Source: Candidatus Peribacteraceae bacterium (GTDB lineage: Bacteria; Patescibacteriota; Gracilibacteria; Peribacterales; Peribacteraceae). From it: 33,411 bases of DNA. The notes under the pieces were generated by a model. That model was not told where the DNA came from, ran no database searches, and was given only the letters and a program-made list of their open reading frames with translations. Each line of letters opens with the position of its first letter. Within the stretch, counting starts at the first letter, position 1. Where the stretch lies: positions 1-33,411 of the forward strand of contig DATDVK010000110.1 of NCBI GenBank assembly GCA_035290085.1, written 5' to 3'. Below, piece by piece: positions 1,827 through 26,694 of this stretch. The translations under genes were made by a program, and so were the position numbers.

Positions 1827-1873
1827 GTTCCCCTTGGCTGTTGGCTGAGAGAACGTTCGAGTAGAGTACCTCC

Positions 1874-3131: not shown

Positions 3132-3212
3132 CTAGACACGGCGTCGTTTGTCGATGCCGCAACGTATGTACAAAGTATGTAAAATTTTGACTGCAAACGG
3201 CGCTGTGTCTAG
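3132..3212 (+). mobile_element. MITE-like palindromic element, copy 1 (19-bp terminal inverted repeats, 43-bp core) carrying the trpS promoter
   Basis: Left arm ctagacacggcgtcgtttg (3132-3150) and right arm caaacggcgctgtgtctag (3194-3212), 17/19 complementary. The first 22 nt match the copy at 28568-28705 in inverted orientation. No transposase is present. Confidence 0.5.
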
Positions 3213-3215
3213 CAT
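3187..3215 (+). promoter_or_regulatory. trpS promoter, TTGACT - 17 nt - TAGCAT, 6 nt before the ATG (leaderless-type)
   Basis: -35 TTGACT at 3187-3192, an exact 17-nt spacer, and -10 TAGCAT at 3210-3215. The TAG of the -10 box is the last 3 nt of the inverted repeat. The ATG is at 3222. Confidence 0.55.
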
Positions 3216-3221
3216 ACGTTC

Positions 3222-4178
3222 ATGCGCGTGCTCTCCGCCATGCAGCCCTCCGGGCAGCTGCACTTGGGAAACTACTTCGGTTCCATGAAGCCGAACCTCG
3301 ATTTCCTCGCGCAGTCGGAGGACAGCTACTTCTTCATTGCCGATCTCCACGCCCTCACCTCGGTGCAGGATCCCGCACTTCTCCGGCAGTACAGGGAAGA
3401 TGCCATTCTGGGCTATCTTGCGGCGGGATTTGATCCCAAGAAGGCGGTGATCTTCTACCAGTCCGAGGTGCCGGAACACACGGAGCTTCTGTGGATTCTC
3501 TCCACGGTGTCCCCCGTGGGTTTGCTGGAGCGTGCGGTGAGTTATAAGGAGAAAGTGGAGAAGGGTATTTCCGCTTCCGTCGGCTTGTTTGCGTATCCTG
3601 TGCTGCAGGCGGCGGACATCCTGCTGTATGGTGCGGACAAGGTCCCCGTCGGGAAAGATCAGAAACAGCATGTGGAGATGGCGAGGGATATCGCCATCAA
3701 GTTCAACAACCAGTTTGGGGAGGTTCTCACGGTGCCGGAGCCGGTGATTGGTGAGGAAGTTGCGGTGGTCCCCGGTATAGACGGGCAGAAGATGAGCAAG
3801 AGCTACGGCAATACCATTCCGCTCTTCGGGGATGAGAAGGAAGTGAAGAAGGCGATTATGGGGATCGTGACCGATTCCAAGGAAAAAGATGATCCCAAGG
3901 ATCCTGAGACCTGCATCATCTATCAGATTCACCGTCTCATGCTGGGGAAGAAGGAGGCTCTTGCTTTGGCAAAGGAGTACCGCAGCGGGCTCCCGTACGG
4001 GGAAGCCAAGAAGAAGCTCTTCCAGTCGTACATGGAGTTCTTTGGGCCTATGCGTCAGCGCAGGGAGGTAATTTCTCTGAAAGAGGCACGGCATGTGCTG
4101 GATGAAGGGGCCAAAAAAGCCCGCTTTGCAGCCCAGAAGACGATGGAGGAGGTGCGCAGGGCCATTGGATTGAGGTAG
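3222..4178 (+). CDS. trpS: Tryptophanyl-tRNA synthetase
   Basis: 318 aa. HIGH-region PSGQLHLGNY and KMSKS (GQKMSKS), with the length and order typical of bacterial TrpRS. Confidence 0.93.
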   Translation: MRVLSAMQPSGQLHLGNYFGSMKPNLDFLAQSEDSYFFIADLHALTSVQDPALLRQYREDAILGYLAAGFDPKKAVIFYQSEVPEHTELLWILSTVSPVGLLERAVSYKEKVEKGISASVGLFAYPVLQAADILLYGADKVPVGKDQKQHVEMARDIAIKFNNQFGEVLTVPEPVIGEEVAVVPGIDGQKMSKSYGNTIPLFGDEKEVKKAIMGIVTDSKEKDDPKDPETCIIYQIHRLMLGKKEALALAKEYRSGLPYGEAKKKLFQSYMEFFGPMRQRREVISLKEARHVLDEGAKKARFAAQKTMEEVRRAIGLR

Positions 4179-4189
4179 AGGCAGAAATT

Positions 4190-4198
4190 TGGTATAAT
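4190..4198 (+). promoter_or_regulatory. Extended -10 promoter TGGTATAAT
   Basis: tTGgTATAAT at 4190-4198. The track ATG at 4202 is only 3 nt downstream, so the in-frame ATG at 4223 is the more plausible start. Confidence 0.5.
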
Positions 4199-4222
4199 GG
4201 TATGAAAATACCAACACACATC

Positions 4223-4915
4223 ATGAAGAACCGAAGATCCGCACACGTTCTCATCACAGCGCTCCTGGGGGTGATGACTATTCCAGTCGCAGTGCAGCAT
4301 GTACTGCTAGGTTCTGTTGTGAGTGACGAAGGAGACTATGCCATCTTCCGTTCTCTGGATGACGACGGAATGAATTTCCAGGGAGAGGATATTCGCCAGG
4401 ATGTCATCGATTACCAGAGTACGTTCCGTGCCCAACGGCGGGCATACTCACGTGCCGTTGAGCGCTGCCGTGACCGCCGCAGGGAGGACGAGAGCATCGA
4501 ATGTCCGGAATTCAATGATGCCGATGCGTATGAGGCAGATGTGATTCAGCCTGTGCATGCGGCTGCGGAACCCGGGCAGGGAGTGCGTGAGGCTCCGAGC
4601 AGCCGCGAACTTGTGCGCCAGCTGAGCACCGAAGAAAGGGAGCTGCTCCGCACGTATACGCGTGCAGGGTTCTGCAGCACCACATTGGGCGAGTCTCTCT
4701 ACGAGCTCTGCCGTGCCATTGTCGGCGAGGAGGACACCAAAACAGCACCCTCGGGATTTATCAATGACAATGTTCTACTCCACAGTCGCTACGCCGCGCC
4801 GCGCCCAACTCTGAAGTTGCGGCTGCAGATGCTGGACGAAGCTATCTCCGGTTCACGTGGCCGCCGCACCGACGTGGGTGGCCCCATGCGGTACCAGGGA
4901 GGCTTGAATAAGTAG
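4223..4915 (+). CDS. Secreted hypothetical protein (signal peptide, charged Cys-containing helical region)
   Basis: MKNRRSAHVLITALLGVMTIPVAV looks like a signal peptide. No family was recognised. The track start at 4202 is an alternative. Confidence 0.6.
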   Translation: MKNRRSAHVLITALLGVMTIPVAVQHVLLGSVVSDEGDYAIFRSLDDDGMNFQGEDIRQDVIDYQSTFRAQRRAYSRAVERCRDRRREDESIECPEFNDADAYEADVIQPVHAAAEPGQGVREAPSSRELVRQLSTEERELLRTYTRAGFCSTTLGESLYELCRAIVGEEDTKTAPSGFINDNVLLHSRYAAPRPTLKLRLQMLDEAISGSRGRRTDVGGPMRYQGGLNK

Positions 4916-8385: not shown

Positions 8386-10458
8386 TCATCTTGTGTCCTT
8401 TACATCATAGTTTCCTTTGAGGATCTCCTTCTCTTTCTCGACGAAATCAAGGACAGTCTCCACGAATGTCGCATGACTCCATGTGAGAGGGGCAACGGAG
8501 AGAGGTTCTCCTGTGAGCGGGTTGAGCTGTTCGGCGAGTACGCCTGCCGGCGATGCGGAGCGGACGACCCAATCGAGCATGGCACGGGCTTTCTCCAGGT
8601 CTGCGATAGTCTGTGCCCGCCGTATGTACCACTGTGCATCCCAGAGTGTGGTAATAATCCACGGGTTTCCGGGTATGTCTTCCCTTGGTTCTGTGACGGA
8701 GTGATAGAGGTCCCCGGGGTATCGCGCGAGTCCTCCTATCGCTGTCCGTACTGTGAGAGCCTCTTCCAGCTGCTGCATGGTGGAGATGGACCGCGGGTCT
8801 TCCGGCGAGAGAACGTCGAGCTTCCAGATCACGGCCATGCTCGCATCGGGTGTGGGGTCTCTGTCCGTTGTCTGCCCGTTCTTCCGCTTGATCTTCTTGA
8901 GAAATCTTCCCAGCTTCTCATCATACAGATGGAAGAGGAGGGCCTGCTTCATTTCGTCTGCTGCGGTCTGGTACCGTTCCGAGTGCGTGTAGTGCCCGAG
9001 GATGTGGCAGATCCGGGCGGCTGCGTGCAGACCGGCGATCGTGCATGCCGTGGTGTATGTGAATACGCCCTTGTGCTCTTCCCATGGGTCGTAGCTCTGG
9101 AGCGGCAGTCCTGTTTCCGGTTCGCGGAAGTCACAGAGGAACTGTGCAGCCTTTTTCACGAGTTCCTCGTACATTTTCTGGAGGAATTCGAAGTCCTTCT
9201 CCCGCTCAAAGTGGTGCCAGAGCGCGTAGAGGACCAGGGCCGTTTCATCTTCCTGAATTGGCAGCTGCGCTTCTCCGTCACGGAACCACGGGTGCCAGGA
9301 GGATCCGTACGAACCATCCGGGTTGTACTTATGCAGCATGTAACCATCCGGCTGCTGAATGCGGCAGCAGAATTCGAAGAAACGCCGAGAAACTTCCATG
9401 AACCCCGCCTTATCGAGTGCGAGAGAAACAAACGCACCATCGCGCGGCCAGACGTATGTGTAGGTATCTTTGTTGAACATCATGATGTCCGCGTCAGCTG
9501 CGGCCATGATTCCTCCGTTGTTGTCGGAGTGCATGCGTATGAGCAGGAGGCTGCGTTTGTAGAGATCAATGATGCCGGGGCTGAGTGAGCCGAATGTTCT
9601 GTGCGTTTTGTTCACCCAGCTCTTCCAGTAGTTGTGGCAGTTGCGCTTCATGCGCTCCGGCGTCTCTTCCAGTATGAACTGCTGCAGCTCCACCACTTCC
9701 TCGAGGTTTTTCCCGAAACAGACCCAGAGGTGCAGCTCAGTTTCTTTCTCCGGTGACACTTCGCAATGGATGGAAACAGTGGAGTCCACGGATCCCTGGT
9801 CGATTGTCGTTCCTGCAAGTTTGCCGTCTTCCGCATCCTTCCAGGTTCCCACATATCCCTGATATTCGGATTTGCCAATGCTGTACTCGTTGATGCCGCA
9901 ACTCTGGATCTTTGTTTTGCTATGGAGGACAGACTTATATGCCTCCACGCTTTTCTCTCTCCGGCATGCAATGGGGTCCGATGTCTGCCCGCCGACCAGA
10001 AAGTACCGTTTCAGGCGGTAGTGGATGACGGTGTTTGTGTATGGCTCGTAGAATGCGGTGTCCTTCTGCTTGTCTCCGTAGATGTGGAAGTCGTGATGGA
10101 AGTAGAATCGCACTTCTTTCTTCTTCCCGTCCGTGCTCACCACCTTGAACTCACGCATGAGGATGTTGTACACCGGGTGCACGTAGTCTTCCGCGGTGAT
10201 CATGAGACCGAGCTTCTTGTTCCTGAGGAGCGAATGCCCGACGAGTGTCTCCGGCTTGTAGTTGGGCTGGATGTCCCAGTCATCGTCTTCAAACCAGGAG
10301 AATCCCAAATCCTCTACCCACACGCCCACGCGGTGCACGTCTCCGTAGGCAGTGTGGTCCTCCATTCCCACGTAGGGGTAGTATAAATCGCGCATTTGAA
10401 GGTTATTGTCGAATGTCGCGAGGAGGGAGCCGTTTCCGAGGATGATGGAGCGCGGCAT
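8386..10458 (-). CDS. Glycoside hydrolase family 15 (glucoamylase/glucodextranase-like)
   Basis: 690 aa. YTYVWPRDGAF motif and C-terminal GVLAEQLNPLTGEPLSVAPLTWSHA, typical of GH15 with an N-terminal beta-sandwich. Confidence 0.88.
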   Translation of the reverse strand: MPRSIILGNGSLLATFDNNLQMRDLYYPYVGMEDHTAYGDVHRVGVWVEDLGFSWFEDDDWDIQPNYKPETLVGHSLLRNKKLGLMITAEDYVHPVYNILMREFKVVSTDGKKKEVRFYFHHDFHIYGDKQKDTAFYEPYTNTVIHYRLKRYFLVGGQTSDPIACRREKSVEAYKSVLHSKTKIQSCGINEYSIGKSEYQGYVGTWKDAEDGKLAGTTIDQGSVDSTVSIHCEVSPEKETELHLWVCFGKNLEEVVELQQFILEETPERMKRNCHNYWKSWVNKTHRTFGSLSPGIIDLYKRSLLLIRMHSDNNGGIMAAADADIMMFNKDTYTYVWPRDGAFVSLALDKAGFMEVSRRFFEFCCRIQQPDGYMLHKYNPDGSYGSSWHPWFRDGEAQLPIQEDETALVLYALWHHFEREKDFEFLQKMYEELVKKAAQFLCDFREPETGLPLQSYDPWEEHKGVFTYTTACTIAGLHAAARICHILGHYTHSERYQTAADEMKQALLFHLYDEKLGRFLKKIKRKNGQTTDRDPTPDASMAVIWKLDVLSPEDPRSISTMQQLEEALTVRTAIGGLARYPGDLYHSVTEPREDIPGNPWIITTLWDAQWYIRRAQTIADLEKARAMLDWVVRSASPAGVLAEQLNPLTGEPLSVAPLTWSHATFVETVLDFVEKEKEILKGNYDVKDTR

Positions 10459-10464
10459 AGGCGG

Positions 10465-11823
10465 TTACAGGTGGAGCCGGGAACGCAAATCGCAGAGCGC
10501 ATGGCTGAAGCGCCGGTAAGCTTCGTATGGCGATTCATACGGACTGAAGTACTTGTGCACGTCTCCGTCGTTCCAGTACTTCGTGCACATGTAGTAGAAG
10601 TGGTCGGAGGTCTGGAGCAGTCGCCAGGCGCGGATGAGCTGTTCATTCCCACTCGCTTTCACTTGCTTCTCCAGTTCGTAGAGCGCCTGCAGTGCAGCCG
10701 ACTGGATCTGGTTTCCGTTCCATGCGGAGAGATCTCTCTCCGTGTCTGCCCAGGAGATGGAGAGGTGTGCGTCGAATGTCTTCTCCTGGAGTTCCAAAGG
10801 GGACTGCACAGTTCCGGGTCTCTTCCAGAGTGCGGAGAGTGCGGCAAGAATGGATGCCGCTTCCTTTTTCAGGTGTTCTTGCTCTGCCGGCTCTCGTGTT
10901 TTCTTCTCCCAGTCGTCGAGGACCTGCGATGGCGTGAGTGCCCGTATACCCCGGTCCTGCCAGAGTTCGGGGAGTTTGCGCAGGAACTCGAATATTCCTG
11001 TGTCTTTCCACTGGTGTTCACCGAACGTTTCATAATCCATGAAGAGGTTGATGTTGTGGCCTCCTGAACCGATGACCCAGTCCGTGAATGTTTCTGCTCT
11101 GAGCGGGAATCCAATCCAGCTTCTGTCTGAGAAGCGGAATGCCACGTCGTCACTCAGTTTGTAGTTCTTTAGAAGGACGAGGATCTTCTTCGGAGGGTAC
11201 ACTCCGGGGAAGAATTGCTTGATGACATTCCAGTATTTGTCTTCCGGGAGGAAGAACTCCGGCGGAGCGTACGGCTCGTTGGGGCTGCGCCCCTGCAGGA
11301 TATGGTCTGCGCCCTCTGCCAGGGTGCCGCGGAATCCCATCATACGGGCAGTGTGGGCGATTTCGTTGTTGAAGATGAGCTCTGTATTGCGGAAGATCTG
11401 TGGTTTCTGTCCGAAGAGTTCCTCTATTTTTCTGACGTGCATGGCCACCTGTTCGCAGAACTCCGGAATGGAGTGGATGGCACTCAGGGAGTGGTAGTAC
11501 GTTTCGGCGAGGAATTCCACTTTCCCGGTTGCTGCGAGCTTCTTGAATGAATCGAACACGTCGTGCCCGTACTCATTGCACTGTTCGAGGAACACGCCTG
11601 AGAGGGAGTAGGAGACATGGAATTCCGGATACTTTTTCAGGAGTTCCAGCATGAGGGCATTTGCCGGGAGGTAGCATTTCTCCGCGACTTTCCGGAACAC
11701 ATCGTGATTCTTCTGCCAGTCGAAGTATTCGCTCCCGTGGCCGATATCTGTGATACGGAGATCCCTGAGCCGGTAGGGTTGATGCACCTGAAAATAAAAG
11801 CAGATATTGGGGGTGGTGTTCAT
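10465..11823 (-). CDS. Glycoside hydrolase family 57 (alpha-amylase/branching-enzyme-type)
   Basis: 452 aa. N-terminal ICFYFQVHQPYR, then MDYETFGEHQW and SDHFYYM motifs. Confidence 0.85.
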   Translation of the reverse strand: MNTTPNICFYFQVHQPYRLRDLRITDIGHGSEYFDWQKNHDVFRKVAEKCYLPANALMLELLKKYPEFHVSYSLSGVFLEQCNEYGHDVFDSFKKLAATGKVEFLAETYYHSLSAIHSIPEFCEQVAMHVRKIEELFGQKPQIFRNTELIFNNEIAHTARMMGFRGTLAEGADHILQGRSPNEPYAPPEFFLPEDKYWNVIKQFFPGVYPPKKILVLLKNYKLSDDVAFRFSDRSWIGFPLRAETFTDWVIGSGGHNINLFMDYETFGEHQWKDTGIFEFLRKLPELWQDRGIRALTPSQVLDDWEKKTREPAEQEHLKKEAASILAALSALWKRPGTVQSPLELQEKTFDAHLSISWADTERDLSAWNGNQIQSAALQALYELEKQVKASGNEQLIRAWRLLQTSDHFYYMCTKYWNDGDVHKYFSPYESPYEAYRRFSHALCDLRSRLHL

Positions 11824-11827
11824 AGAG

Positions 11828-13045
11828 TTAGGAGTGGAGTATCTGTTGGTAGAGGGAGCGCACGGCCATTGCCTGGTGTTCCCAGGTCAGCCGGTCAAGT
11901 ACGCGCGAGGCTTCGGAGCGCAGCTGCCATGCGAGAGGGTCTTCGCGCAGGAGCGTGAGGACGCAGTCGGCCATCTTCGCCGTATCCCAGAAATCCACTT
12001 TGAATGCGTGGCCGATGACTTCACTCACGCCTGACTGCTTGGAGATGATGACGGGAGTTCCCTGCGCTATCGCCTCGAGGGCCACGAGTCCGAACGGTTC
12101 CGAGAGCGAAGGCATGACAAAGCAGTCTGCCTGTGCAAAGAGTACCTGCGCTTCGTCGTTGCTCACTTTCCCCGCGAAGATGATGTTGTTCTTCAGCCCT
12201 AGTTGCAGCGAGTGCTCAATGAGTTCCCCCAGCATGCCGCCGTCCCCTGCGACTACGAACTCAACATCCGGCCGGATACCGTGCACTGCGGAGGCCATTT
12301 CCAGGAATTGGTGCGGGCCCTTCTGCAGGGTCAGGCGTCCGAGGAAGAGCACCATCGGTGGGTGATTTTTCCTGTACTCCGAGTGGATGACTTCCGGATT
12401 GATGTCTCTTGTGATGTTGTTCCCGTTATGGACAACGGTGATTTTCTCCGCAGGGATTCCGTAGTGGGACACGAGGATCTGCTTGGTGTAATTGCTCACA
12501 GCAATGATTTTGTCCGCCTGTTCAAATCCCCACCTCTCCCGCTCGTAGATCCACTGGTTCGGGCTGAAGTGCGTGCGGTCAAGCTCTGTGGCGTGGATGT
12601 GTGCGACCAGGGGTTTGCGGTGGTAGCGCGCTGCCCTCACTCCTGCTTCATACGTCATCCAGTCGTGGCAGTGCACGATGTCCGGGCGGACGTCTTTTGT
12701 CATTTCCACGCTTGCTGCCGAGTAGTTGGCTATTGCTTGCCCCAGATCTTCCCCGTAGATTTGCTGCCGCTCTCTCGGTACGCTCTTCACTCTCTGGTAG
12801 TACTGCTGGGCGCTGTCGTACGGAGAAAGCATGCTTGCAATATGCATGTGTTCGAGCATCTCTTCCGTCGGGTAGAGAATATCCAAGTCTCCTTCCCGAT
12901 CGGCATCCGGGTGGGGGAGCACGAGTGTCACTTTTACGCCGTTCTTCATCAGTCCGCGCACGAGTCCTTGGCAGGCAACACCCAATCCGCCGAGATGAAT
13001 GGGGGGGTATTCCCAGCCGAACATGAGTGTATGCAAACGAGACAT
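11828..13045 (-). CDS. GT-B glycosyltransferase, glycogen/alpha-glucan synthase-like (GT4/GT5)
   Basis: 405 aa. N-terminal PIHLGGLGVA loop, C-terminal PSLSEPFGLVALEA motif, and 4 nt from the GH57 gene. Confidence 0.8.
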   Translation of the reverse strand: MSRLHTLMFGWEYPPIHLGGLGVACQGLVRGLMKNGVKVTLVLPHPDADREGDLDILYPTEEMLEHMHIASMLSPYDSAQQYYQRVKSVPRERQQIYGEDLGQAIANYSAASVEMTKDVRPDIVHCHDWMTYEAGVRAARYHRKPLVAHIHATELDRTHFSPNQWIYERERWGFEQADKIIAVSNYTKQILVSHYGIPAEKITVVHNGNNITRDINPEVIHSEYRKNHPPMVLFLGRLTLQKGPHQFLEMASAVHGIRPDVEFVVAGDGGMLGELIEHSLQLGLKNNIIFAGKVSNDEAQVLFAQADCFVMPSLSEPFGLVALEAIAQGTPVIISKQSGVSEVIGHAFKVDFWDTAKMADCVLTLLREDPLAWQLRSEASRVLDRLTWEHQAMAVRSLYQQILHS

Positions 13046-13189: not shown

Positions 13190-13876
13190 TCACACAAGTA
13201 CGGCGACAGCTTCCTTCCCTTTCGGCGTGAGGCGGATGTGCTTGTTCCTGGCTTCTATGAGTCCTTCCTGCTCAAGCTTCAGCAGCTGTTTCGTCACGGT
13301 TTCCCGCGTGAGGCCCGTGGCGTTGGCAAGTTTTTCGTGCGTCATTTTTGTGGGTATTCTCAGAATAGGCGGGAGGATGCTCCGTTCCTCCTTTTCGCTG
13401 AAGAGGCGCACGGCGGAGAGAATGCGTTCCTGCGCGCCGAGCAAGGAGAGGAACTTCACCTGTGACTCGTACTCAGAAATCCGTTTGCTGAGCAGCCGCA
13501 GTGCCCGGAGAGCCACTTCCGGTTTCTTCCTGAGGAGTTGCACCATAAAATTCTCCGGCAGTGTGCAGATGAATGATCTCTGCGTGGTTTCCGCGTAGTG
13601 TTTTTCACCTGTCATGAAGCCGATGCTCCCGAAAATGGATCCCGGTTTCAGGATGTCGAGCAACACCTTTTTCCCCTCCGGTGTGGTCTGGTAGATGATC
13701 ACTTCTCCCTCTTTGAGAATGTACATGTCTTCCACCTGTTCCTGCGGAGTGTAGAGGATATAGTGATTGGGGAACTCCCCGTGGTTGATTTTCTGTACGA
13801 TCTCATTGATCTCTTCGTCCGACATAGTGGCGAAGAGCTCCACTTTCTTCAGGTACCAGACGGGAGGGCGGTGCAT
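13190..13876 (-). CDS. Crp/Fnr family transcriptional regulator
   Basis: A cNMP-binding barrel (YILKEGEVIIY, GSIFG) plus a C-terminal HTH (THEKLANATGLTRETVTKQLLKLEQEGLI). TACAAT lies 8 nt upstream of the ATG, so a leaderless mRNA is likely. Confidence 0.88.
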   Translation of the reverse strand: MHRPPVWYLKKVELFATMSDEEINEIVQKINHGEFPNHYILYTPQEQVEDMYILKEGEVIIYQTTPEGKKVLLDILKPGSIFGSIGFMTGEKHYAETTQRSFICTLPENFMVQLLRKKPEVALRALRLLSKRISEYESQVKFLSLLGAQERILSAVRLFSEKEERSILPPILRIPTKMTHEKLANATGLTRETVTKQLLKLEQEGLIEARNKHIRLTPKGKEAVAVLV

Positions 13877-13918: not shown

Positions 13919-14848
13919 CTATGACTGTTCTGTGCCGAGAACGTGTCCTTTGAGTGTTTCCAGTACAACATCGAGATCCTCGTTCACAAGAATGTGATCG
14001 AAGAGCTCGCTCCGCTCCTCGAAGAAGTCGAGATCTCTCTCCGCGTTCTTCATGCGGTCCTGGATGTGGCGTTCGGTGTCCCGCCCGCGGCTGCGCAGGC
14101 GGTGCAGGAGCTGTGAGAGCATGGCTCGCCGGCTCCTGCCCGGGGGGAGGAGGCCGAAGGAGAGAATGGATCTTCTCCCGTAGTAGGCACTGAGTCCCTG
14201 CAGCAGGTGCTGCTCGGTAATGACAACGGGAATTTTCCCCTTGTCCCATATTGCCTGGATATCTTTCTCCTGGTAGCCGTACCAGCGTTTCTCGGAATGT
14301 GAGGGGATCTGTGTAGCTGCAATAATCTTCTGCTCCTTCTGCATGCGTGTGAACTCTATGGTGCTCGTGTGGTTGTACTCGCCTTCATCACCTCTCTTCT
14401 TCCTCCGCGTGGTCACGATGGGAACGTTTTCCACGTAGTCGCCCAGCACCGTTGTGAGGAGCCGGCTGACGGTGGATTTGCCCACGCCGGACGGGCCGTA
14501 CAGCGCGACAATGTACCCCGGGAATTCCAGTTTCTGTTCCACCGCGAGAGGCTGGGAAACAGCAAGTTCATAGACGACATCGTAGATGCGCAGCCCCTGC
14601 GCGTTTGTTCTGATCAGCTGCATGCGCGGCAGGACCTTCTGCCCGATGCGGAGGGTGCAGTTTGCCGGGATGCGCATCTGACCCATGACGCGATTTCCAT
14701 CTTTCAGTTCAATGAGGCCAATGATGAACGGGCCTGCACCAAACCCCTCGGAGGGGTGGTTCACTGTTGTGAAAGAGATGATGGTCCCTTCCTGCATCTT
14801 GCGTTTGCATGCAGTTTTTGCCCTGTAGATGACGGAGGGATTAGACAT
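13919..14848 (-). CDS. Fusion protein: DUF35-like OB-fold domain (no zinc ribbon) + guanylate-kinase-like P-loop kinase
   Basis: The N-terminal region GTIISFTTVNHPSEGFGAGPFIIGLIELKDGNRVMG...IGQKV resembles the DUF35 OB fold. The C-terminal region has GPSGVGKST, VTTRRKKRGDEGEY, WYGY, RLRSRGRDTERHIQDRM and VNEDLD in guanylate-kinase order. The start ATG at 14848 overlaps the thiolase stop (ATGTCTAA). The track start at 14980 lies inside the thiolase gene. Confidence 0.75.
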   Translation of the reverse strand: MSNPSVIYRAKTACKRKMQEGTIISFTTVNHPSEGFGAGPFIIGLIELKDGNRVMGQMRIPANCTLRIGQKVLPRMQLIRTNAQGLRIYDVVYELAVSQPLAVEQKLEFPGYIVALYGPSGVGKSTVSRLLTTVLGDYVENVPIVTTRRKKRGDEGEYNHTSTIEFTRMQKEQKIIAATQIPSHSEKRWYGYQEKDIQAIWDKGKIPVVITEQHLLQGLSAYYGRRSILSFGLLPPGRSRRAMLSQLLHRLRSRGRDTERHIQDRMKNAERDLDFFEERSELFDHILVNEDLDVVLETLKGHVLGTEQS

Positions 14849-15956
14849 GGATATGTTCCAGAATGTGGATACCGCAGCTGGCGCACGCGCCGCCGAAATT
14901 ATGGGAGAGCCCCCAACGGTTGCCTGAGTTCCTGAGTTGCTTGCTGACGTCAATGAGCTGCTTGATGCCGGTGGCAGCAACAGGATGGCCGCACGCCTTC
15001 AATCCTCCGCTCGCGTTGATGGTGGGGACTGGATCTGCCTGCTCATACAGTTCTATGCCTCTCCCCGGTTCCGCAAAACCCAGATCCTCCACATTGATGA
15101 CTGCTGCAATGGAGAAGCAATCGTGTACTTCGATGTGTGAAATGCTGCTCCGGTCGGTGTCTGCTTCCTCCAGTGCCTTCTCCATCGCTTTCTTCGTAGC
15201 AGGGAACGAGGTGATGCTCTCGCGTTCAGTCAGACTTACAGCATCTGAAGCGAGCTGGGAAGCGGCAAGCTTCATATCACTCTCGAATGCTGTCGAGAGG
15301 ATGCAGGCTGCCGCACCATCACTGATGGGGGAGCAGTCGAGCATGCAGAGCGGGTCTGCCACCTTGGGACTCTGAGAGATCTTCTCTGCGGGAATTTCTG
15401 CGCGGAACTGCGCGAAAGGATTCGCCACTGCATTGTGGTGGTGCACTGCGCTCACCGTATTCAGCCGTTCGCGTGTGAGACCGTACTCGAACATGTACCG
15501 CTGTGCGACGAGCCCGAAAATGCCGGGGAACGTGAGGCCACAGGGGGCATCTTTCTCGCTGTCTGCCGCTCCCATGAGCGCAGTGGATACCTCTGCGGGC
15601 GTTACGTCTGTCATCTTTTCCACGCCGAGTACCAGCACTGTTTTCGCACGGCCGCTTTCCAGGAGGGCGCAGGCGGTGTGCAGCGCGACTGCGCCGGATG
15701 CGCATGCGGATTCCACGCGGAGAGCGGGGGGTCTGTGCGGGAGGAGTGACGAAGCTAGCGCACCGAGGTGAGCCTGCGCGTTCGTCCGTTCGGCAATCAT
15801 GTTTGCCACGACGACCGTATCAATATCGAGTGCGGTGCAAGGGGCGTTTTCGAGGGCGTCGTCTATTGCCTCGTACATGAGGTCGCGGATGCCTTTTTCC
15901 CACCACTCTCCGAAGCGGGTCTGTCCTGAGCCGATGAGGAAAACATCCGTGTTCAT
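14841..15956 (-). CDS. Acetyl-CoA acetyltransferase (archaeal-type thiolase)
   Basis: Motifs VESACASG, NASGGLKACGHPVAATG and GGACASCG. The start ATG at 15956 overlaps the HMGCS stop (ATGA). The track N-terminal extension to 16310 overlaps HMGCS. Confidence 0.88.
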   Translation of the reverse strand: MNTDVFLIGSGQTRFGEWWEKGIRDLMYEAIDDALENAPCTALDIDTVVVANMIAERTNAQAHLGALASSLLPHRPPALRVESACASGAVALHTACALLESGRAKTVLVLGVEKMTDVTPAEVSTALMGAADSEKDAPCGLTFPGIFGLVAQRYMFEYGLTRERLNTVSAVHHHNAVANPFAQFRAEIPAEKISQSPKVADPLCMLDCSPISDGAAACILSTAFESDMKLAASQLASDAVSLTERESITSFPATKKAMEKALEEADTDRSSISHIEVHDCFSIAAVINVEDLGFAEPGRGIELYEQADPVPTINASGGLKACGHPVAATGIKQLIDVSKQLRNSGNRWGLSHNFGGACASCGIHILEHIHV

Positions 15957-16990
15957 GCTTGTGCTGTCACAGCGTGCCCTCGCAGGCTGTACTGTCCGTA
16001 CGTGAGGTAGCGAGGGGTGCGCGTATCGGTTGGGAGGAGCACTCCATCGCGGAGCATGGTGAAGAGGAATGCATCGGAGCCTGCTCCGGAACCGTAGGAT
16101 ACGAGGAGAATTGTCTCTCCTTCCTTCGCTTTCTGCAATACATGTGCGAGTCCCAGGGGGGAGCAGGCACTGTAGGTGTTGCCAATGCGGGGCACGATGA
16201 ACCCGTGTTTCATCTGCTCTTTCGTGAATCCGAACTCCTTGGCGATCTTGCTCGGGAACTTCGCATTCGGCATGTGCAGGATGACATGGTTTACATCTTT
16301 CACGTCGCATTCCGCCGTATCCAGTATCCCTTTCGTTGCCTCGCGCACGTGGCGGAAATACGCAGGCTCGCCGGTGAAGCGCCCGGCATGGCTGGGGTAC
16401 TTGTCATGGGCGCCGCGCCAGAAATCGGGAGTGTCGGTGGTGAAGGAGAGTGTGTAGTCAATACGGCAGAGTGCGTTTTTTGAGCGCTCCGGTCCTATGA
16501 CGAAAGCAGCGGCACCCGCGGCGGCTGTGTATTCCAGGGCATCGCCGGGGGCTGCCTGTGCCGTGTCGCTTCCGATGGCAAGCCCGTAGCGGATCTGCCC
16601 TGCGCGCACCATGGAATCCACGATCTGCATGCCGGCCGTACCCGCTTTGCAGGCGAATTCCAGGTCTGCACAATGGCAGAACGGATCGAGATCCAGCGCA
16701 TCCGCCACCATGCCGCTCGTGGGTTTGACGGCGTACGGATGGCTCTCGGATCCGACGAATGATGCGGAGATCTGTGACGGCTTCACTCCGGCGATTTCTA
16801 TCGCCTGTTTGGCTGCCTCGTACGCCATGGTGAAAGTGTCTTCCCCTTCGCCGGGGACCGTTTTCTCCTGCACTCCCAGCCCACTCTCAATGGCATGGGC
16901 ATCCTGCTGCCATTCCGCAGCAATGTCTGCGGTGCGGATGCGGTCACTCGGCAGGTACATGCCAAAACCGATGATGGCAGATTTGCTCAT
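15953..16990 (-). CDS. mvaS: Hydroxymethylglutaryl-CoA synthase, archaeal type
   Basis: 345 aa. Motifs GSESHPYAVKP, DLEFACKAGT (catalytic Cys) and HMPNAKF, with context between HMGR and thiolase. Confidence 0.88.
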   Translation of the reverse strand: MSKSAIIGFGMYLPSDRIRTADIAAEWQQDAHAIESGLGVQEKTVPGEGEDTFTMAYEAAKQAIEIAGVKPSQISASFVGSESHPYAVKPTSGMVADALDLDPFCHCADLEFACKAGTAGMQIVDSMVRAGQIRYGLAIGSDTAQAAPGDALEYTAAAGAAAFVIGPERSKNALCRIDYTLSFTTDTPDFWRGAHDKYPSHAGRFTGEPAYFRHVREATKGILDTAECDVKDVNHVILHMPNAKFPSKIAKEFGFTKEQMKHGFIVPRIGNTYSACSPLGLAHVLQKAKEGETILLVSYGSGAGSDAFLFTMLRDGVLLPTDTRTPRYLTYGQYSLRGHAVTAQA

Positions 16991-17026: not shown

Positions 17027-18226
17027 CTATCTGGCATGTTTTTTGTGGGCAGACGCAAGGGTCTGGTTGGCCTGCGCAGCGAGAAGTGAGATTTCCCCTG
17101 CGAGGACTGCTGCTCCTATACTCTCAGCAAGCTGCCTGCAGGGGTGGAGAGACGTGCGGTTCTTCAGGAGCATCTGCAGGCACTGGTTCTGTGCAGGGAG
17201 GGCCGTGCCGCCGCCGCGGACGCCGATGAGCAGAGCAGGGAGGCGGGTGGAAACAGCGAGATCATCACCTCGGAGCTCCACAGTCGTATCTGCGAGCGAG
17301 CCTTCTACAACGTGTGCCGCGTCCTGGCCGGTTGCCAGGTACAGCGCAGCAATGACATTGGCAGCATGGAGGTTCGCTCCGAGTGCTCCTGCAATCTCCG
17401 ATCCTTCTCTCAGTTTTGCGTCCGCGACTGCCGCCATATCTGTTGCAGTTGTCTTCAGCATGGAGGAGATCACTGTACCGGGGATGAGTGTCTTGGCTGT
17501 CACTTCGTACCCGCGGCCGCGGTCATGCGTCCGTCGGCTCGGCTTCTTATCACTGTCGACATTCCCGGCGATGGTGATGAGGCGGGGGGAGTAGTCCTGC
17601 ATGTTTTGAACGATCCAGTCGCCCACTGCCTGTGCTGCAATCGTCACCATGTTCATGCCCATGGCTTCATCTGTGTCACAGAAGAGTGTGAGGAACACGT
17701 ACTGCCCCCTCACATCGACATCGGAGTCCATCACATGCAGATGGCTGCTCGTTGCCTCTGCAATTTGGCTCCATTTGGCTTGCAGATCCTGTAATTTTTT
17801 GGTGAACATTTGTACACCATCCGTGCTCTTTTCCCTCTTATTCTCACCGGAAGCTCCACCGATCTGAAAAGCGATGGACCGGGTCATGCCGTGGTGGGTT
17901 GAGAGCGTGTGTACGTCCGTCTCGCAGAGCACTTTGCACCCCCGATTGATGCTCGCGACGAGTGCGCCCTCGGTGGTGGCGAGCGGCAGGTGAACGGTTG
18001 TCTTCTCACCGGAGCTGCACAGGAATGTGAGCGGTCCGGCGTACCCAACAGGCAATGGAACCATGCCGAACATCTGTTCACAGTTTTTTTCGTCTGCTTC
18101 GCCGGCATGTTCATCGTCTGTGCGCGTGTGTGTAAGATCGAGTTCCAGTTCCTGCTCCAAGCGTCTGCGTCTTTCATTGCAGCGTTCACCGGGGGAGAGG
18201 CCGTCTCTGAGGTTCCGTAAGTCCAT
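17027..18226 (-). CDS. mvaA: HMG-CoA reductase, class I
   Basis: 399 aa. Motifs PLATTEGALVAS, DEAMGMNM and IGVRGGGT. Confidence 0.9.
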   Translation of the reverse strand: MDLRNLRDGLSPGERCNERRRRLEQELELDLTHTRTDDEHAGEADEKNCEQMFGMVPLPVGYAGPLTFLCSSGEKTTVHLPLATTEGALVASINRGCKVLCETDVHTLSTHHGMTRSIAFQIGGASGENKREKSTDGVQMFTKKLQDLQAKWSQIAEATSSHLHVMDSDVDVRGQYVFLTLFCDTDEAMGMNMVTIAAQAVGDWIVQNMQDYSPRLITIAGNVDSDKKPSRRTHDRGRGYEVTAKTLIPGTVISSMLKTTATDMAAVADAKLREGSEIAGALGANLHAANVIAALYLATGQDAAHVVEGSLADTTVELRGDDLAVSTRLPALLIGVRGGGTALPAQNQCLQMLLKNRTSLHPCRQLAESIGAAVLAGEISLLAAQANQTLASAHKKHAR

Positions 18227-18317: not shown

Positions 18318-18812
18318 CTAAGAAAGCAGCTTCAGCATCAGATGCATGCGATCGATGTATCCTGCTCTGGCATAGAATTCGTGCGCGGAGATGTTCGGGG
18401 CGAAACAATCGACAAACGCGCAGGTGCACCCCTGTGTGCGGAAATATTCTTCCATTGCCTGCATCAGGCGCGTGCCCAAGCCGGATTTGCGGTGTTCCGA
18501 GGTCACGATCAGTTCGAGGATGGAGCCACTCTTCGACGGGTATGATTCCAGTGAGTCGATTTCGTTCTGTTCGGAGATAATGCCGACGATACATCCTGCA
18601 ATGCGGTCATCCTCCTCTGCGACGAAGATATTCCCGGAGCACTTTTCCACCCGCTTAAGCGTGCAGTCGATGTATGCGTCACCGTTGAATGCCGGAAGAT
18701 CCCGCGTCCGTTTGAGCGTGTCAAGATCGGAGACGTACTTCTGTAGCTCTTTGATGCATGACTTGATGCTTTCTCTGTCCGATGGCCGGTACTCGCGGAT
18801 GACCGCTTCCAT
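18318..18812 (-). CDS. GNAT family N-acetyltransferase
   Basis: 164 aa. RKSGLGTRLM acetyl-CoA motif A, with GNAT length. TATCAT lies 6 nt before the ATG. Confidence 0.85.
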   Translation of the reverse strand: MEAVIREYRPSDRESIKSCIKELQKYVSDLDTLKRTRDLPAFNGDAYIDCTLKRVEKCSGNIFVAEEDDRIAGCIVGIISEQNEIDSLESYPSKSGSILELIVTSEHRKSGLGTRLMQAMEEYFRTQGCTCAFVDCFAPNISAHEFYARAGYIDRMHLMLKLLS

Positions 18813-19029: not shown

Positions 19030-20040
19030 TTAAGGGATCAAGCATGCACCTGGTCCTGTCTTTGTCTCGAAGAGGGCGCATCCTTCCTGTGCCCGTGCGA
19101 AGGCCAGCACCCGGTCACGTGCTTCCTCCGTGCAGAGCAGCTGGACCGTCGGGCCAGCATCCATGGTGTAGAATACGGGAAGGTGCTCGCTCCTGCGCAG
19201 CTCCGTGATGTCTCTCGTGATACGGTGCGTGTCCTCCGTGAGGTAGTCGAGGGGCGGCGTGCTCGTCCGCATCACATGGTGCATGTCGATGCAGTCTTCC
19301 TCTACCACGCGCTGTAACTTCTCAAAGTCCTTCGCGAGGACCGCATCGATGCACTCCTGTTGCCGCCAGTTCCTGATGGCTTGCACCCGGGCAGCGTAGT
19401 GCGGGCTGGTGTGTGCGGTCGCGTGCCCCTCCGTGGAGCCGATCTTCTTTTCCTGCAGGGAGGGGACCAGGATGATGTCGTGGAGAGCCCAGTGATGCTC
19501 GTCTGCATACTGTCTGCCGTAGGCGCTCCCGATTGCATCACTCTCTCCTGCGAGGAGTGCGGAGAAGCCCCCGAAGATGCTGCGGGCGGCTGAACCGGAG
19601 CCGAGCCTTGCAAGGACGCTCGTCTGCTCGTCTGTGAGCTCGATCGTTGGAAGGATAAGCCCCTGCAGTGCGCGGGCGAGGCAGCTGAAGACGGCGGAGG
19701 AGGAAGCGAGCCCGACAGCTGAAGGGATCTGAGAGCGCACGGTAATCGTTGCGGATGCCGGGAGGGCATCTCCAGCGCCGAGCGTGCGCAGGTACTGCCT
19801 GATGAGCTCCAGCGTCTTCCCAAAGCGCTGGATATGCGCTGTCCCGAGCTCTTTCTCCGAGCCGTCCGGGCTGAAGGAGCGCACGCTGAGGACATCGGCA
19901 TGGTCCAGTGTGATCTCCACGGTCGGACTATCGAGCGTCATGGAGAACGAGTCTGCCATGGGGAGCCGTAAGGCATTATTCCGGTTGCCCCAGTACTTCA
20001 TCCAGGCGCTGTTCGGTGTGGATCTTGCAGTGACACTCAT
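19030..20040 (-). CDS. mvaD: Diphosphomevalonate decarboxylase family (MVD; could equally be a phosphomevalonate decarboxylase)
   Basis: Motifs WMKYWGNRNNALRLP and VGLASSSA (GHMP). The start ATG at 20040 overlaps the MVK stop (ATGA). The track extension to 20292 overlaps MVK. Confidence 0.85.
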   Translation of the reverse strand: MSVTARSTPNSAWMKYWGNRNNALRLPMADSFSMTLDSPTVEITLDHADVLSVRSFSPDGSEKELGTAHIQRFGKTLELIRQYLRTLGAGDALPASATITVRSQIPSAVGLASSSAVFSCLARALQGLILPTIELTDEQTSVLARLGSGSAARSIFGGFSALLAGESDAIGSAYGRQYADEHHWALHDIILVPSLQEKKIGSTEGHATAHTSPHYAARVQAIRNWRQQECIDAVLAKDFEKLQRVVEEDCIDMHHVMRTSTPPLDYLTEDTHRITRDITELRRSEHLPVFYTMDAGPTVQLLCTEEARDRVLAFARAQEGCALFETKTGPGACLIP

Positions 20041-20873
20041 ACATTGAGAGTGGAAAAGTGTGTGGGGACTGCGCGCAGGATCTTCTTGTGGTCTTCGTGG
20101 AGCACCAGGAGCATACCCCCGCCTCCCGTACGCCCTCCGGCTCCGATGATCTTCGCGCTGCCGCCTGAGTTCTCTATCTTTTCCACGAGTTCCTGCACAC
20201 TCTTCGGAACCACGCCCAGTGCCACCTGAGCGCGATGATGCTCGCGCATCACATTCCCAAGGTCTTCTCCTTCCATCAGTTTCTCTGTGCAACGGCCGAT
20301 AGTCCTCAGTGCTGGTTCAAGTTTTTCTCTGCGCTCCGTAATCCATGCAATGAGTTCCGGGGTCGTCTCGTTCGGTGCCCCCGTATCTATGAGCATCGTG
20401 TTCTTGAGGAGATTTCGAGGAAGCTTGATTGTTTCCGGCTTGTTGTCTTTCTGAAAGAGGGTGGGGGTGTTGTTCCATATCACAGAGAAATCCAGACCGC
20501 TGTGCCCGGGGTTGAGCGCATTCTCAATCTCCAGTGCTTTTTCCCTGCAATCTTTCCCAAGCAAACATCGGGAAACAGCAATGACAAGTGCGGTGGACGA
20601 ACCCATGCCTTTTCTCAGCGGGATACTGTTCTCAATGGTGAGATCTCCGGAGCATTTGCCGCACTGTGCGATGATGTGTTTCAGGTACTCCTGCCACTCC
20701 GGTTCCCGTGCGATTCCATTCCAGTGGATCCGCAGGTCTCTTGTGTCTTCCTGATTTTCCAGCGTTACTTTCATCGTGAGCGGCGATGGTACGGCGATGC
20801 CGGGGTAGCCAAAGAGGACGGCAAACTCTCCTGAAAGAATAATTTTCCCCGGTGCGGATGCTGTGCGTTTCAT
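20037..20873 (-). CDS. mvk: Mevalonate kinase
   Basis: 278 aa. Motifs APGKIILSGEFAV and KGMGSSTA (GHMP motif), plus C-terminal GAGGRTGGG. TGGTATCCT lies 10 nt upstream of the ATG. Confidence 0.88.
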   Translation of the reverse strand: MKRTASAPGKIILSGEFAVLFGYPGIAVPSPLTMKVTLENQEDTRDLRIHWNGIAREPEWQEYLKHIIAQCGKCSGDLTIENSIPLRKGMGSSTALVIAVSRCLLGKDCREKALEIENALNPGHSGLDFSVIWNNTPTLFQKDNKPETIKLPRNLLKNTMLIDTGAPNETTPELIAWITERREKLEPALRTIGRCTEKLMEGEDLGNVMREHHRAQVALGVVPKSVQELVEKIENSGGSAKIIGAGGRTGGGGMLLVLHEDHKKILRAVPTHFSTLNV

Positions 20874-21010: not shown

Positions 21011-21694
21011 TCATCCTCCGAATCGTCGGGAACGCTCCGTGTACGCATCCACCTCTTTCGCCAGGTCTTGCGCAGTGAACTCTGGGAATTTCTTCTGAGG
21101 GAACGCCCATTCGCTGTAGGTGGATTGCCAGAGGAAGAAGTTGCTCGTGCGCTTCTCGCCCGAGGTGCGTATGATGAGATCGATGTCGGGGAGTTCGGGG
21201 TGATCCAGATGTTTTCGTACGGAATCCTCTGTCGCATCTTTGGTGCTTTGCATTTTCCGGATGGCGCGGATGACCTCGTCGCGTCCTCCGTAGTCCAGTG
21301 CGAGGTGCAGCGTGAACGCGGTCATCTGTTTGCTTTCCTCTTCTATTTCACCGATGAGAGTCGCCAGCTTCTCCGGAATGCGGTCTTTGTGTCCCGAGTG
21401 CACAAGGCGTGTTTGCTTCTCCCGGAAGAGGTTCCTTTCCTTCATGAGGTACTCCTCGAGCATTCCCATGAGCATCTCGATTTCTTTCACGTCCCGTTTC
21501 CAGTTTTCGGTGGAGAAGCACCAGATGGTCAGTACGGCAATGCGGGGATCCTTATGGCACCAGTCCGTGAGGGACCGGAAATTGGCCACTGCTTTCCGGT
21601 GGCCTTCCCACGGGTCCAGCGCATGCTTCCTGGCCCAGCGTCTGTTGCCGTCCGGAATGATGGCGATGTGCAGGGGGGTCGTTCTTTTTTCCAT
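21011..21694 (-). CDS. uppS: Isoprenyl transferase (undecaprenyl diphosphate synthase family)
   Basis: Motifs IIPDGNRRWA and RTSGEKRTSNFFLWQSTYSE. The ATG at 21694 is preferred; the track GTG at 21766 would add 24 atypical residues. Confidence 0.88.
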   Translation of the reverse strand: MEKRTTPLHIAIIPDGNRRWARKHALDPWEGHRKAVANFRSLTDWCHKDPRIAVLTIWCFSTENWKRDVKEIEMLMGMLEEYLMKERNLFREKQTRLVHSGHKDRIPEKLATLIGEIEEESKQMTAFTLHLALDYGGRDEVIRAIRKMQSTKDATEDSVRKHLDHPELPDIDLIIRTSGEKRTSNFFLWQSTYSEWAFPQKKFPEFTAQDLAKEVDAYTERSRRFGG

Positions 21695-21774: not shown

Positions 21775-22290
21775 TCATTTGAGGAGTTGCCTGAGGCCGA
21801 GCGTGAACCAGGGAGCGTACGCATCCGGATTCCTTTTCATATCTGCGAGCACTTTCTCCACCGGCGTCCATTTCGTTTCAGCGATCTCGTCTGGGTCCGG
21901 TTTGGTGTCCTGATTTCCGTCCACATCTCCCCGGAAGAGCGTGACATGTTCATGTTCGACTCCCCGTCCGCCCGGATCCTCAGCGCGGTACACGAGGGTG
22001 CCGGCCTCCCGCAGGCTGCACTCGATGCCGCATTCTTCCCGCAGGCGCCTTTTCCCTGCTTCCAGTATCCCTTCGCCCGGGAGCGGGTGGCTGCAGCAGG
22101 TGTTTGCCCAGAGGAGAGGGAAGAGCATTTTCTTGCTGCTCCGCTTCTGCATGAGGATTTCTTTCCCATCCTTCCGGAAGACGTACACGGAGAAAGCCCT
22201 GTGGAGCTTCCCTTTCCCCGTATGGGCATCCACGATCTCTGCATGACCTGTTTCCTTCCCCTGTCTGTCTGTGAGTACGACGTTTCGCAT
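21775..22290 (-). CDS. idi: Isopentenyl-diphosphate delta-isomerase, type 1 (Nudix)
   Basis: 171 aa. Motifs HRAFSVYVF, WANTCCSHP and EHEH. Confidence 0.88.
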   Translation of the reverse strand: MRNVVLTDRQGKETGHAEIVDAHTGKGKLHRAFSVYVFRKDGKEILMQKRSSKKMLFPLLWANTCCSHPLPGEGILEAGKRRLREECGIECSLREAGTLVYRAEDPGGRGVEHEHVTLFRGDVDGNQDTKPDPDEIAETKWTPVEKVLADMKRNPDAYAPWFTLGLRQLLK

Positions 22291-25919: not shown

Positions 25920-25935
25920 GGAAGAAGCTTCTTCC
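25920..25935. terminator. Perfect 16-nt palindrome ggaagaagcttcttcc between convergent genes
   Basis: Read directly. It has no loop or U-tract and overlaps the stop of the minus-strand gene, so a terminator role is uncertain. Confidence 0.25.
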
Positions 25936-26606: not shown

Positions 26607-26694
26607 AAGGAGAGGGGGTACCCGCAATTTTGCGCGTAGACTGCTTTTCGTGCAAACGCATCCTATTGGCACAGCCCTGAAACCTGACATAGAT

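Follow-up and report, generated by a model that had tools for sequence, protein, structure and literature searches.

The 33,411-nucleotide stretch analysed here, referred to below as the window (contig DATDVK010000110.1, positions 1 to 33,411, of the Candidatus Peribacteraceae bacterium assembly GCA_035290085.1), carries on its reverse strand an operon of the mevalonate (MVA) pathway with the gene order IDI, UPPS, GHMP278 (a divergent GHMP kinase), decarboxylase, GNAT acetyltransferase, HMG-CoA reductase (HMGR), HMG-CoA synthase (HMGCS), thiolase, a fusion gene, and a Crp-type regulator (Table 1). The subject of this report is the fusion gene, in which a DUF35-type OB fold is joined to a guanylate-kinase (GK) fold. 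The fusion is real, conserved and previously undescribed. On comparative evidence, we give an even chance to the proposal that its kinase is an isopentenyl phosphate kinase (IPK) completing the lower MVA pathway.

The fusion gene and its two domains

The translated open reading frame (ORF) begins with MSNPSVIYRAK. Its ATG, at 14848-14846 within ATGTCTAA, is in overlap with the thiolase stop codon TAA (14843-14841), and further ATGA overlaps at the GHMP278/decarboxylase and HMGCS/thiolase junctions point to tight coupling along the operon. Both halves of the protein pass the curated Pfam thresholds, with PF01796 (OB_ChsH2_C) matching amino acids (aa) 19-72 at 39.1 bits (E=7.4e-10, cut-off 27.1) and PF00625 (Guanylate_kin) matching aa 114-300 at 57 bits (E=2.7e-15, cut-off 25.2). 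In an AlphaFold2 (AF2) model built with 100 homologues (mean pLDDT 87.9), an N-terminal helix leads into an OB fold of five strands, which a linker that is disordered (aa 101-106) connects to a GK fold. An earlier interpretation of this DNA (the sequence-only reading) had proposed just such an arrangement, namely about 105 aa of the OB half of DUF35 followed by a GK domain of about 200 aa, a start codon overlapping the thiolase stop, and the GK motifs GPSGVGKST, TTRRKKRGDE, WYGY and RSRGRDTERHIQDR in order, and all of these are found in the fusion. No such fusion was known to its author; full-text literature searches likewise gave no description of a DUF35-GK fusion, nor of a GK-fold kinase acting on isopentenyl phosphate (IP) or phosphomevalonate. 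Database labels for proteins of the family read 'guanylate kinase', 'OB-fold domain-containing protein' or 'hypothetical'.

Members of the DUF35 family combine an N-terminal rubredoxin-like zinc ribbon with four cysteines (PF12172) and a C-terminal OB fold (PF01796), and in archaea a DUF35 protein scaffolds the thiolase/HMGCS complex. In the AF2 model of the fusion, a helix (aa 4-17) precedes the OB strands at aa 21-29, 41-48, 53-59, 71-81 and 87-95. When 28 orthologues were used to build a profile of the first 105 residues and this was searched against PDB sequences, the best match was 6esq_E ('Pfam DUF35', E=1.1e-5), aligned at its residues 50-109 (the OB part) only; this chain is the DUF35 scaffold in the thiolase/HMGCS complex from Methanothermococcus (PDB entry 6ESQ). 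Profile searches of each half, suggested as a check in the sequence-only reading, thus gave PF01796 and PF00625 above cut-off and a DUF35 chain as the closest PDB sequence for the OB half. The zinc ribbon is absent, as there are only 17 residues (a helix) ahead of the OB fold and no CxxC; the protein has just two cysteines (C14, C64) and no Pfam match to PF12172, which agrees with the absence of CxxC pairs claimed previously. Placement of the fusion next to the thiolase and HMGCS genes, with coupling, is conserved in about 80 loci.

The best Foldseek match of the fusion model is the yeast guanylate kinase (Gmk) complex with GMP, 1gky (TM 0.89 on target, rmsd 2.0 A, 25% identity). The kinase domain scores below the guanylate-kinase equivalog TIGR03263 (72.6 bits vs a cut-off of 160.45) and below NF011325 (32.8 bits vs 263). 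Residues were mapped by alignment to yeast Guk1 and their conservation counted over 100 fusions. The P-loop lysine (K124) and the lid arginines (R131/R135/R146 in Guk1, R250/R254/R265 here) are kept and invariant, and the phosphate clamp is kept by residues that are invariant or nearly so (R38 to R148, R41 to K151, Y50 to Y158 and Y78 to Y190). The contacts to guanine, in contrast, are replaced at three positions (S34 to P143, E69 to A, S80 to Y192) and conservatively changed at a fourth (D100 to E212), and Pro143, Tyr192 and Glu212 are invariant across the fusion family. The guanine-reading segment of Gmk has given way to the near-invariant family motif IPSxxExRxYGY, which arises through a four-residue insertion and in which R188 is invariant. 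The divergence of the base-reading stretch noted in the sequence-only reading therefore stands, but it is family-wide and not peculiar to this protein.

Models of other kinases did not account for the domain: PhnN models gave weak matches of 24-31 bits (cut-off 156), TIGR01220, NF040957 and the Pfam families of phosphomevalonate kinase (PMK) gave no match to the fusion, and there was no Pfam match to the amino-acid-kinase (AAK) family PF00696. Judged by its sequence and modelled fold, the domain is a member of the guanylate-kinase superfamily by fold and ancestry and not Gmk itself. GPSGVGK(S/T) is invariant save in a few lineages where it has decayed (L006, L007 and L013, L-numbers being labels of the loci of relatives), so that by its motifs the family is not an inactive GK of the MAGUK type.

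In a large protein collection there are 372 relatives. Nearly all of the top 120 are two-domain proteins of about 300 aa, and those with a named source come from Candidatus Peregrinibacteria/Peribacteraceae. In contigs representing one genome per species, at least 136 genomes, mostly Peregrinibacteria, encode a relative, the closest of them, at 98% identity, being 'Candidatus Peribacteria bacterium RIFOXYB1_FULL_54_35'. The edge of the family is sharp, in that an exhaustive HMMER search with the kinase domain alone returned 18 representatives at E<=1e-30 and then ordinary Gmk at 50-100 bits. A survey of the spread of the fusion and of its co-occurrence with MVA genes, as proposed with the earlier interpretation, found the gene order of the window, or a simple variant of it, at every locus with enough flank. 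Wherever the flanks could be read (50 or more loci), the operon contains just two GHMP-type genes and no AA_kinase gene. A sub-clade with a rearranged operon, in which UPPS is inverted upstream and IDI follows the fusion (L062, L068, L070, L073, L078, L080, L083, L086), consists of metagenome-assembled genomes labelled Kaiserbacteria, Saccharibacteria or Parcubacteria that are nested among Peregrinibacteria in a thiolase+HMGCS tree, which points to mislabelled bins or to a putative lateral transfer of the whole operon.

Decarboxylase type, gene context and the missing step

The residues that set the specificity of mevalonate-5-phosphate decarboxylases (MPDs) reportedly go back to Thomas et al. 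2019. The engineered positions were inferred here from a comparison of 6n0x with its engineered counterpart 6n0z (N to K in KYWG(N/K) and H to M in G(H/M)), and true diphosphomevalonate decarboxylases (MDDs) from Enterococcus and Staphylococcus carry K and M at the same places. These positions were cross-checked against Table 4 of Dellas et al. 2013, in which Lys21 is present in all MDDs and MPDs have a residue other than Lys there together with Arg27 (PMC3857490). The best PDB match of the window decarboxylase is 6n0x, the MPD of Anaerolinea thermophila and the sole structure of a phosphomevalonate decarboxylase (PMC9254496). In the window enzyme these sites read KYWGNRNNALRLP (KYWGN...LR, that is Asn21/Arg27) and IGSTEGH, and its catalytic DAGP is preserved; the combination of Asn21, Arg27 and GS(T/S)EGH occurs in 55/55 decarboxylases of typical operons, window included. 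By these residues the operon decarboxylase carries the MPD signature. If it is of the MPD type, the enzyme missing from the pathway would be an IPK rather than a PMK; of the two steps left open by the sequence-only reading, phosphorylation of IP is thus favoured.

No other gene for either step was encountered. A scan of the large ORFs of the window found neither a GHMP-type PMK nor an IPK of the AAK family, in agreement with the earlier statement that the window contains a mevalonate kinase (MVK), an MVD-family decarboxylase and IDI and lacks both kinases. In the complete genome of the relative Ca. Peribacter riflensis, the operon likewise ends in a 312-aa K00942-like gene (103.7 bits), and a separate 200-aa gmk (K00942, 157.7 bits) is present (PMC4736985, supplement 2). 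K00938 (PMK), K06981 (IPK), K13273 and K17942 are absent from the complete annotation table of that genome, and the accompanying paper lists every step of a 'near-complete' pathway except the conversion of mevalonate-5-phosphate to mevalonate-5-diphosphate (PMC4736985). The sequence-only reading had named a genome with PMK or IPK elsewhere and no other gmk as the case that would reduce the fusion to a housekeeping enzyme; the relative has a separate gmk and neither PMK nor IPK.

The kinase also occurs apart from the OB fold. Many standalone kinases of about 200 aa start at the P-loop, keep the motifs and have no OB domain, and many of them are diverged. In L008 the context is IDI-UPPS-kinase-Crp, which resembles the window operon minus everything from the GHMP kinase through the OB domain, and in L104 it is UPPS(-)/kinase/IDI, which is like a deletion in a variant operon with the fusion linker FPGYILAL still there. 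L009 and L171 have the order UPPS-His_Phos_1-kinase, and the standalone loci L009, L010 and L171 belong to a cluster of cell-envelope glycan genes, on a contig of 1.01 Mb. UPPS is the one partner that all the contexts seen have in common, and no mevalonate genes lie near the standalone kinases that accompany UPPS or IDI. A metagenome scan with four standalone sequences recovered 14 family loci, the rest being ordinary gmk genes. Members of the Candidate Phyla Radiation (CPR) that are without most MVA genes typically keep a canonical IPK syntenic with IDI, according to Hoshino and Gaucher (PMC6107057); by analogy, the GK-like kinase fills the same genomic niche as IPK does in other CPR. The claim that the fused kinase is a candidate for the missing phosphorylation thus gains from its linkage to isoprenoid genes even when unfused and from the lack of PMK and IPK in the relative, and it is refined here to an IP kinase.

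Conserved clusters in which a standalone kinase accompanies genes of the histidine-phosphatase family (His_Phos_1) lie at L171:7870-10651, L009:4193-6187, L010:1844-3929 and L011:719-1953. The order is His_Phos_1-UPPS-His_Phos_1-kinase in L171, of which only part is present in L009 (UPPS-His_Phos_1-kinase) and in L010 and L011 (His_Phos_1-kinase), and the last His_Phos_1 gene overlaps the start of the kinase. The clusters of L010 and L171 are situated among WecG, UDP-GlcNAc 2-epimerase and Wzy_C genes.

We propose that the OB fold would be the partner-binding half of a DUF35 scaffold joining thiolase and HMGCS, with a helix in place of the zinc ribbon, and that the C-terminal domain would be a kinase derived from guanylate kinase and capable of catalysis, with the ATP site, the lid arginines and the clamp for an acceptor phosphate kept and the guanine pocket rebuilt into a small, family-specific one. 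The predicted substrate is a small phosphomonoester of the lower MVA pathway, most likely IP, which would be converted to isopentenyl diphosphate (IPP), so that the fusion kinase would represent a non-homologous replacement of the AAK-family IPK. The route would be of the haloarchaeal/Chloroflexi type and run from mevalonate to mevalonate-5-phosphate (GHMP278), to IP (MPD-type decarboxylase), to IPP (fusion kinase), and on to IDI and UPPS. Substrate, catalysis and tethering to thiolase and HMGCS are what we infer from these comparisons. The wider proposal, that a hitherto unrecognised GK-fold IPK class completes an MVK-MPD-IP kinase pathway of haloarchaeal type in Peregrinibacteria and related CPR while tethered through its OB fold to thiolase/HMGCS, and that the standalone forms serve IP salvage for the synthesis of undecaprenyl-phosphate in CPR without the pathway, we put at somewhat short of even.

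Table 1. Positions of the operon genes and of the segments of the fusion gene in the window.
Feature	Position	Strand	Basis or remark
Fusion gene	13919..14848	-	309 aa + stop; N-terminal helix, DUF35-type OB fold, linker, guanylate-kinase-fold domain
OB-fold domain (aa 18-95)	14564..14797	-	PF01796; 6esq_E profile match; AF2 strands
Guanylate-kinase-fold domain (aa 113-305)	13934..14512	-	PF00625 57 bits; TIGR03263 72.6 bits; Foldseek 1gky
Walker A / P-loop GPSGVGKST (aa 118-126)	14471..14497	-	Sequence; G118-K124 invariant in 100 fusions
Acceptor-site motif PSHSEKRWYGY (aa 182-192)	14273..14305	-	Guk1 alignment; R188, Y190, Y192 invariant
Lid region RLRSRGRDTERHIQDR (aa 250-265)	14054..14101	-	R250, R252, R254, R265 invariant; correspond to yeast Gmk arginines R131/R135/R146
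IDI, type 1 IPP isomerase	21775..22290	-	NF002995 161.7 bits, above cut-off
UPPS, cis-prenyltransferase	21011..21694	-	TIGR00055 193 bits
GHMP278, divergent 278-aa MVK-like GHMP kinase	20037..20873	-	TIGR00549 96.8 bits (below cut-off 163)
MVD-family decarboxylase	19030..20040	-	Best PDB match 6n0x; specificity positions
GNAT acetyltransferase	18318..18812	-	Between decarboxylase and HMGR
HMG-CoA reductase, class I	17027..18226	-	PF00368 E=6e-88
Archaeal-type HMG-CoA synthase	15953..16990	-	NF003274 439 bits, TIGR00748 399 bits, both above cut-off
Archaeal-type acetoacetyl-CoA thiolase	14841..15956	-	Pfam + NCBIfam; stop overlaps fusion ATG, ATG overlaps HMGCS stop (ATGA)
Crp/Fnr-type regulator (cNMP-binding + HTH)	13190..13876	-	Pfam; directly downstream of fusion

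A GNAT gene between decarboxylase and HMGR was seen in the window and, beyond it, in no loci but those of its closest relatives, L015 and L100; elsewhere this interval is empty or is taken up by a HAD hydrolase gene or a small ORF. The Crp/Fnr-type gene is possibly the regulator of the operon, and a Crp-type regulator also lies 3' of the standalone kinase in L008 and of the fusion in L013 and L037. Just downstream of the operon (8386-13045, reverse strand) are GT5/GT4 glycogen-synthase-like, GH57 and GH15 glucoamylase-like genes, a block that also follows the operon in L001, L003 and L013, so that synteny is kept across distant Peregrinibacteria. Four sizeable ORFs of the window (1766-2446, 3132-4217, 4202-4915 and 25935-26849) have no Pfam match; like the ORF at 4202-4915, a gene of 226-247 aa with no Pfam match lies beside maf in L001, L003, L004 and L013. 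The forward strand at 29-1558 encodes part of a large protein, extracellular and bearing Big_9 and cadherin-like repeats, of a type noted as abundant in Peribacteria genomes.

Cassette genomes and the weighing of alternatives

Five species genomes carry an extra gene pair, consisting of a canonical MVK and a decarboxylase designated MVDc, that replaces the usual decarboxylase, and these cassettes were acquired at no fewer than four separate places (>=4) in the thiolase+HMGCS tree. The cassette MVK passes TIGR00549 (215 bits), its best PDB match being the Methanosarcina MVK (2e-42). MVDc is a distinct decarboxylase paralogue, scoring about 130 bits across types vs 330-650 within type, with Arg21/Arg27 and with the catalytic Asp changed to Asn in the motif NTGQD instead of DAGPN/T. 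A cassette was located at L013:4260-6208 and also in L014, L068, L080, L086 and L094. In L094 an IS200-like (Y1 transposase) ORF (L094:5396-6085) and a 589-aa ORF of no assigned function lie between HMGR and HMGCS, which is consistent with a recent rearrangement in this cassette-bearing genome. The extra 323-aa GHMP kinase of L013 was considered as a canonical PMK, and this was ruled out by NCBIfam and PDB searches, both of which identify a mevalonate kinase; with that result an argument from a natural experiment fell, and a rival arose in which the GK-fold domain is itself the analogue of MVK.

Several observations in this paragraph and the next weigh against an IPK. The fused kinase is eroded in four of the five cassette genomes (L013, L068, L086 and L094; that of L080 is intact): in L013 the Walker lysine, lid and acceptor motif are all gone, and in the other three R188 and/or Y190 has been lost. 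Loss of R188/Y190 is thus seen in 4/5 cassette genomes vs 0/50 without a cassette, or, under a lenient definition of change, 4/5 vs 0-3/50 (Fisher p=4.9e-4), and erosion of the acceptor motif is confined to genomes with the MVK+MVDc cassette or of unknown context. GHMP278 is fully conserved in cassette genomes and hence not redundant with MVK, L079 has an MVDc-like decarboxylase with no extra MVK and keeps its kinase intact, and no AAK-family IPK was found among unassigned ORFs near the cassettes of L068, L080, L086 and L094 or in the corresponding region of L079. The simplest reading of the erosion pattern is that the kinase is redundant with MVK and not with an IP kinase. Also against an IPK, Arg27, an MPD-like residue, is present in MVDc too. 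As judged from gene content, the pair of fused kinase and MPD-type decarboxylase can be exchanged functionally for the pair of canonical MVK and MVDc. This could mean that the GK-fold domain phosphorylates mevalonate and that GHMP278, which scores below the MVK equivalog cut-off, is the phosphate kinase (a PMK or an IP kinase), a reading that we consider improbable. We favour instead a swap of routes, in which the diphosphate would be the substrate of MVDc, the role of PMK would fall to one or other of the two MVK-like kinases, and an IP kinase would be unneeded. The known enzymes of the PF00625 family (Gmk, PhnN) transfer phosphate to a phosphomonoester, and to our knowledge none phosphorylates a hydroxyl; for this reason, and since the acceptor-phosphate clamp is invariant, GHMP278 is MVK-like, and the standalone kinases beside UPPS/IDI with no MVD nearby are hard to explain as mevalonate kinases, the swap is preferred. 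GHMP278 matches only mevalonate kinases in the PDB. It has GE(Y/F)AV where MVKs have GEHAV; a PMK-like reading of GEYAV was given no weight, as the N-terminal consensus peptide alone also matches only MVKs in the PDB.

That the fused kinase is instead a PMK analogue, making mevalonate-5-diphosphate from mevalonate-5-phosphate for a true MDD along the classical route, in parallel to animal PMK, is unlikely in our judgement. Such an enzyme would supply exactly the step left unidentified in the Peregrinibacteria paper (PMC4736985), where PMK is absent from a complete genome of a relative. NCBIfam labels the window decarboxylase a diphosphomevalonate decarboxylase, although the pass is narrow (TIGR01240, 179.4 vs 171.35 bits), and in L079 a decarboxylase with Lys21 occurs beside an intact kinase. 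Conservation of the phosphate clamp also fits a PMK; the invariant pocket residues Glu186 and Arg188 could bind a carboxylate or the 3-OH and would be apt for a substrate with a carboxylate, for instance phosphomevalonate. Against a PMK stand the 55/55 typical decarboxylases with Asn21/Arg27, identical to the Anaerolinea MPD, the strictness of Lys21 in MDDs, the predicted clash of Arg27 with the beta-phosphate, and the fact that a PMK beside UPPS/IDI at the standalone loci would have no use should their genomes be without MVD. A further change, Pro143 at the Ser34 position, is the one that inactivated Gmk in the evolution of MAGUK proteins (PDB titles 4f4j and 9jae), and would fit a non-catalytic GK fold with a structural or regulatory role in the thiolase/HMGCS/DUF35 complex, either MAGUK-like or as a sensor of nucleotide or IPP, that compensates for the lost zinc ribbon, the missing kinase being another protein. 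The deep-branching L006 and L007, where the context seen is HMGCS-thiolase-fusion, have dead kinase domains and may rely on a standalone copy; together with L013 they nonetheless retain the whole domain of about 200 aa and the core motif LSxGLLPPG, which hints at an additional structural role. A purely non-catalytic module is very unlikely, given that about 100 fusions show no change in the Walker A lysine, lid arginines or clamp, that standalone copies exist with no OB domain, and that erosion is tied to pathway gene content. The JGI and KEGG pipelines label the fusion guanylate kinase (K00942). Identity with the housekeeping Gmk is ruled out by the TIGR03263 score, the replaced guanine contacts and the separate gmk in P. 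riflensis, and with a conserved place at the end of the MVA operon and relatives in 136 genomes we leave next to no room for a housekeeping enzyme fused by chance.

Significance and comparison with known systems

The first complete Peregrinibacteria genomes, published in 2016, left one mevalonate phosphorylation unassigned, and the fusion is a testable candidate for this gap. The fusion gene would imply an MPD route in these bacteria and not the classical one assigned by annotation, a point of some consequence as isoprenoid synthesis in CPR has served in arguments on the ancestral pathway. If the proposal of an IPK is true, the kinase is a new case of non-orthologous displacement, with a Gmk-derived enzyme acting on an isoprenoid phosphate, and the protein is a new fusion of the first to the last enzyme of a pathway on a DUF35 scaffold. 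The labels 'guanylate kinase', 'OB-fold domain-containing protein' and 'diphosphomevalonate decarboxylase' would then be misleading for several hundred public proteins, and engineered isopentenol-utilisation pathways could make use of an IP kinase that is small, soluble and differently folded.

Compared with the archaeal DUF35 scaffold (6ESQ/6ET9), the fusion has a homologous OB fold and is likewise encoded right after archaeal-type HMGCS and thiolase, to which it is translationally coupled; unlike the scaffold, it has a helix for the N-terminal four-Cys zinc ribbon and bears a kinase of 200 aa at its C-terminus. With Gmk (yeast Guk1, 1GKY) the kinase domain shares the fold, the P-loop, the TTR/Arg-Tyr phosphate clamp and the lid arginines, and phosphoryl transfer to a phosphomonoester is accordingly expected; it differs in being about 25% identical, fused to an OB fold, and situated in an MVA operon of bacteria in which a genuine gmk coexists (P. 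riflensis). PhnN (ribose 1,5-bisphosphate phosphokinase) offers a precedent, being related to Gmk and having as substrate a phosphomonoester that is not a nucleotide, although the fusion kinase falls far below the PhnN cut-off and has another pocket and another context. The GK domains of MAGUK proteins likewise have Pro at the Ser34 position and a GK fold inside a multidomain scaffold protein, but their P-loop and catalysis are lost, whereas the catalytic residues are invariant in the fusion kinase.

The hallmark of AAK-family IPK is the AAK fold with a catalytic His60. The fusion kinase resembles this enzyme of the haloarchaeal and Chloroflexi-type pathway in the reaction proposed for it, in its MPD-type partner, and in its adjacency to IDI and UPPS where no MVA genes are nearby; it has a P-loop NMP-kinase fold, is not homologous and has no PF00696 match, and would thus be a functional analogue at most. 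Animal PMK is a P-loop enzyme of NMP-kinase fold, unrelated to the GHMP-type PMK, and sets a precedent for an NMP-kinase-type fold at a phosphate-to-diphosphate step of the mevalonate pathway. It belongs to a different family, the fusion having no Pfam match to it among the 22 families listed, and its substrate is mevalonate-5-phosphate, against which the MPD signature of the operon decarboxylase argues here.

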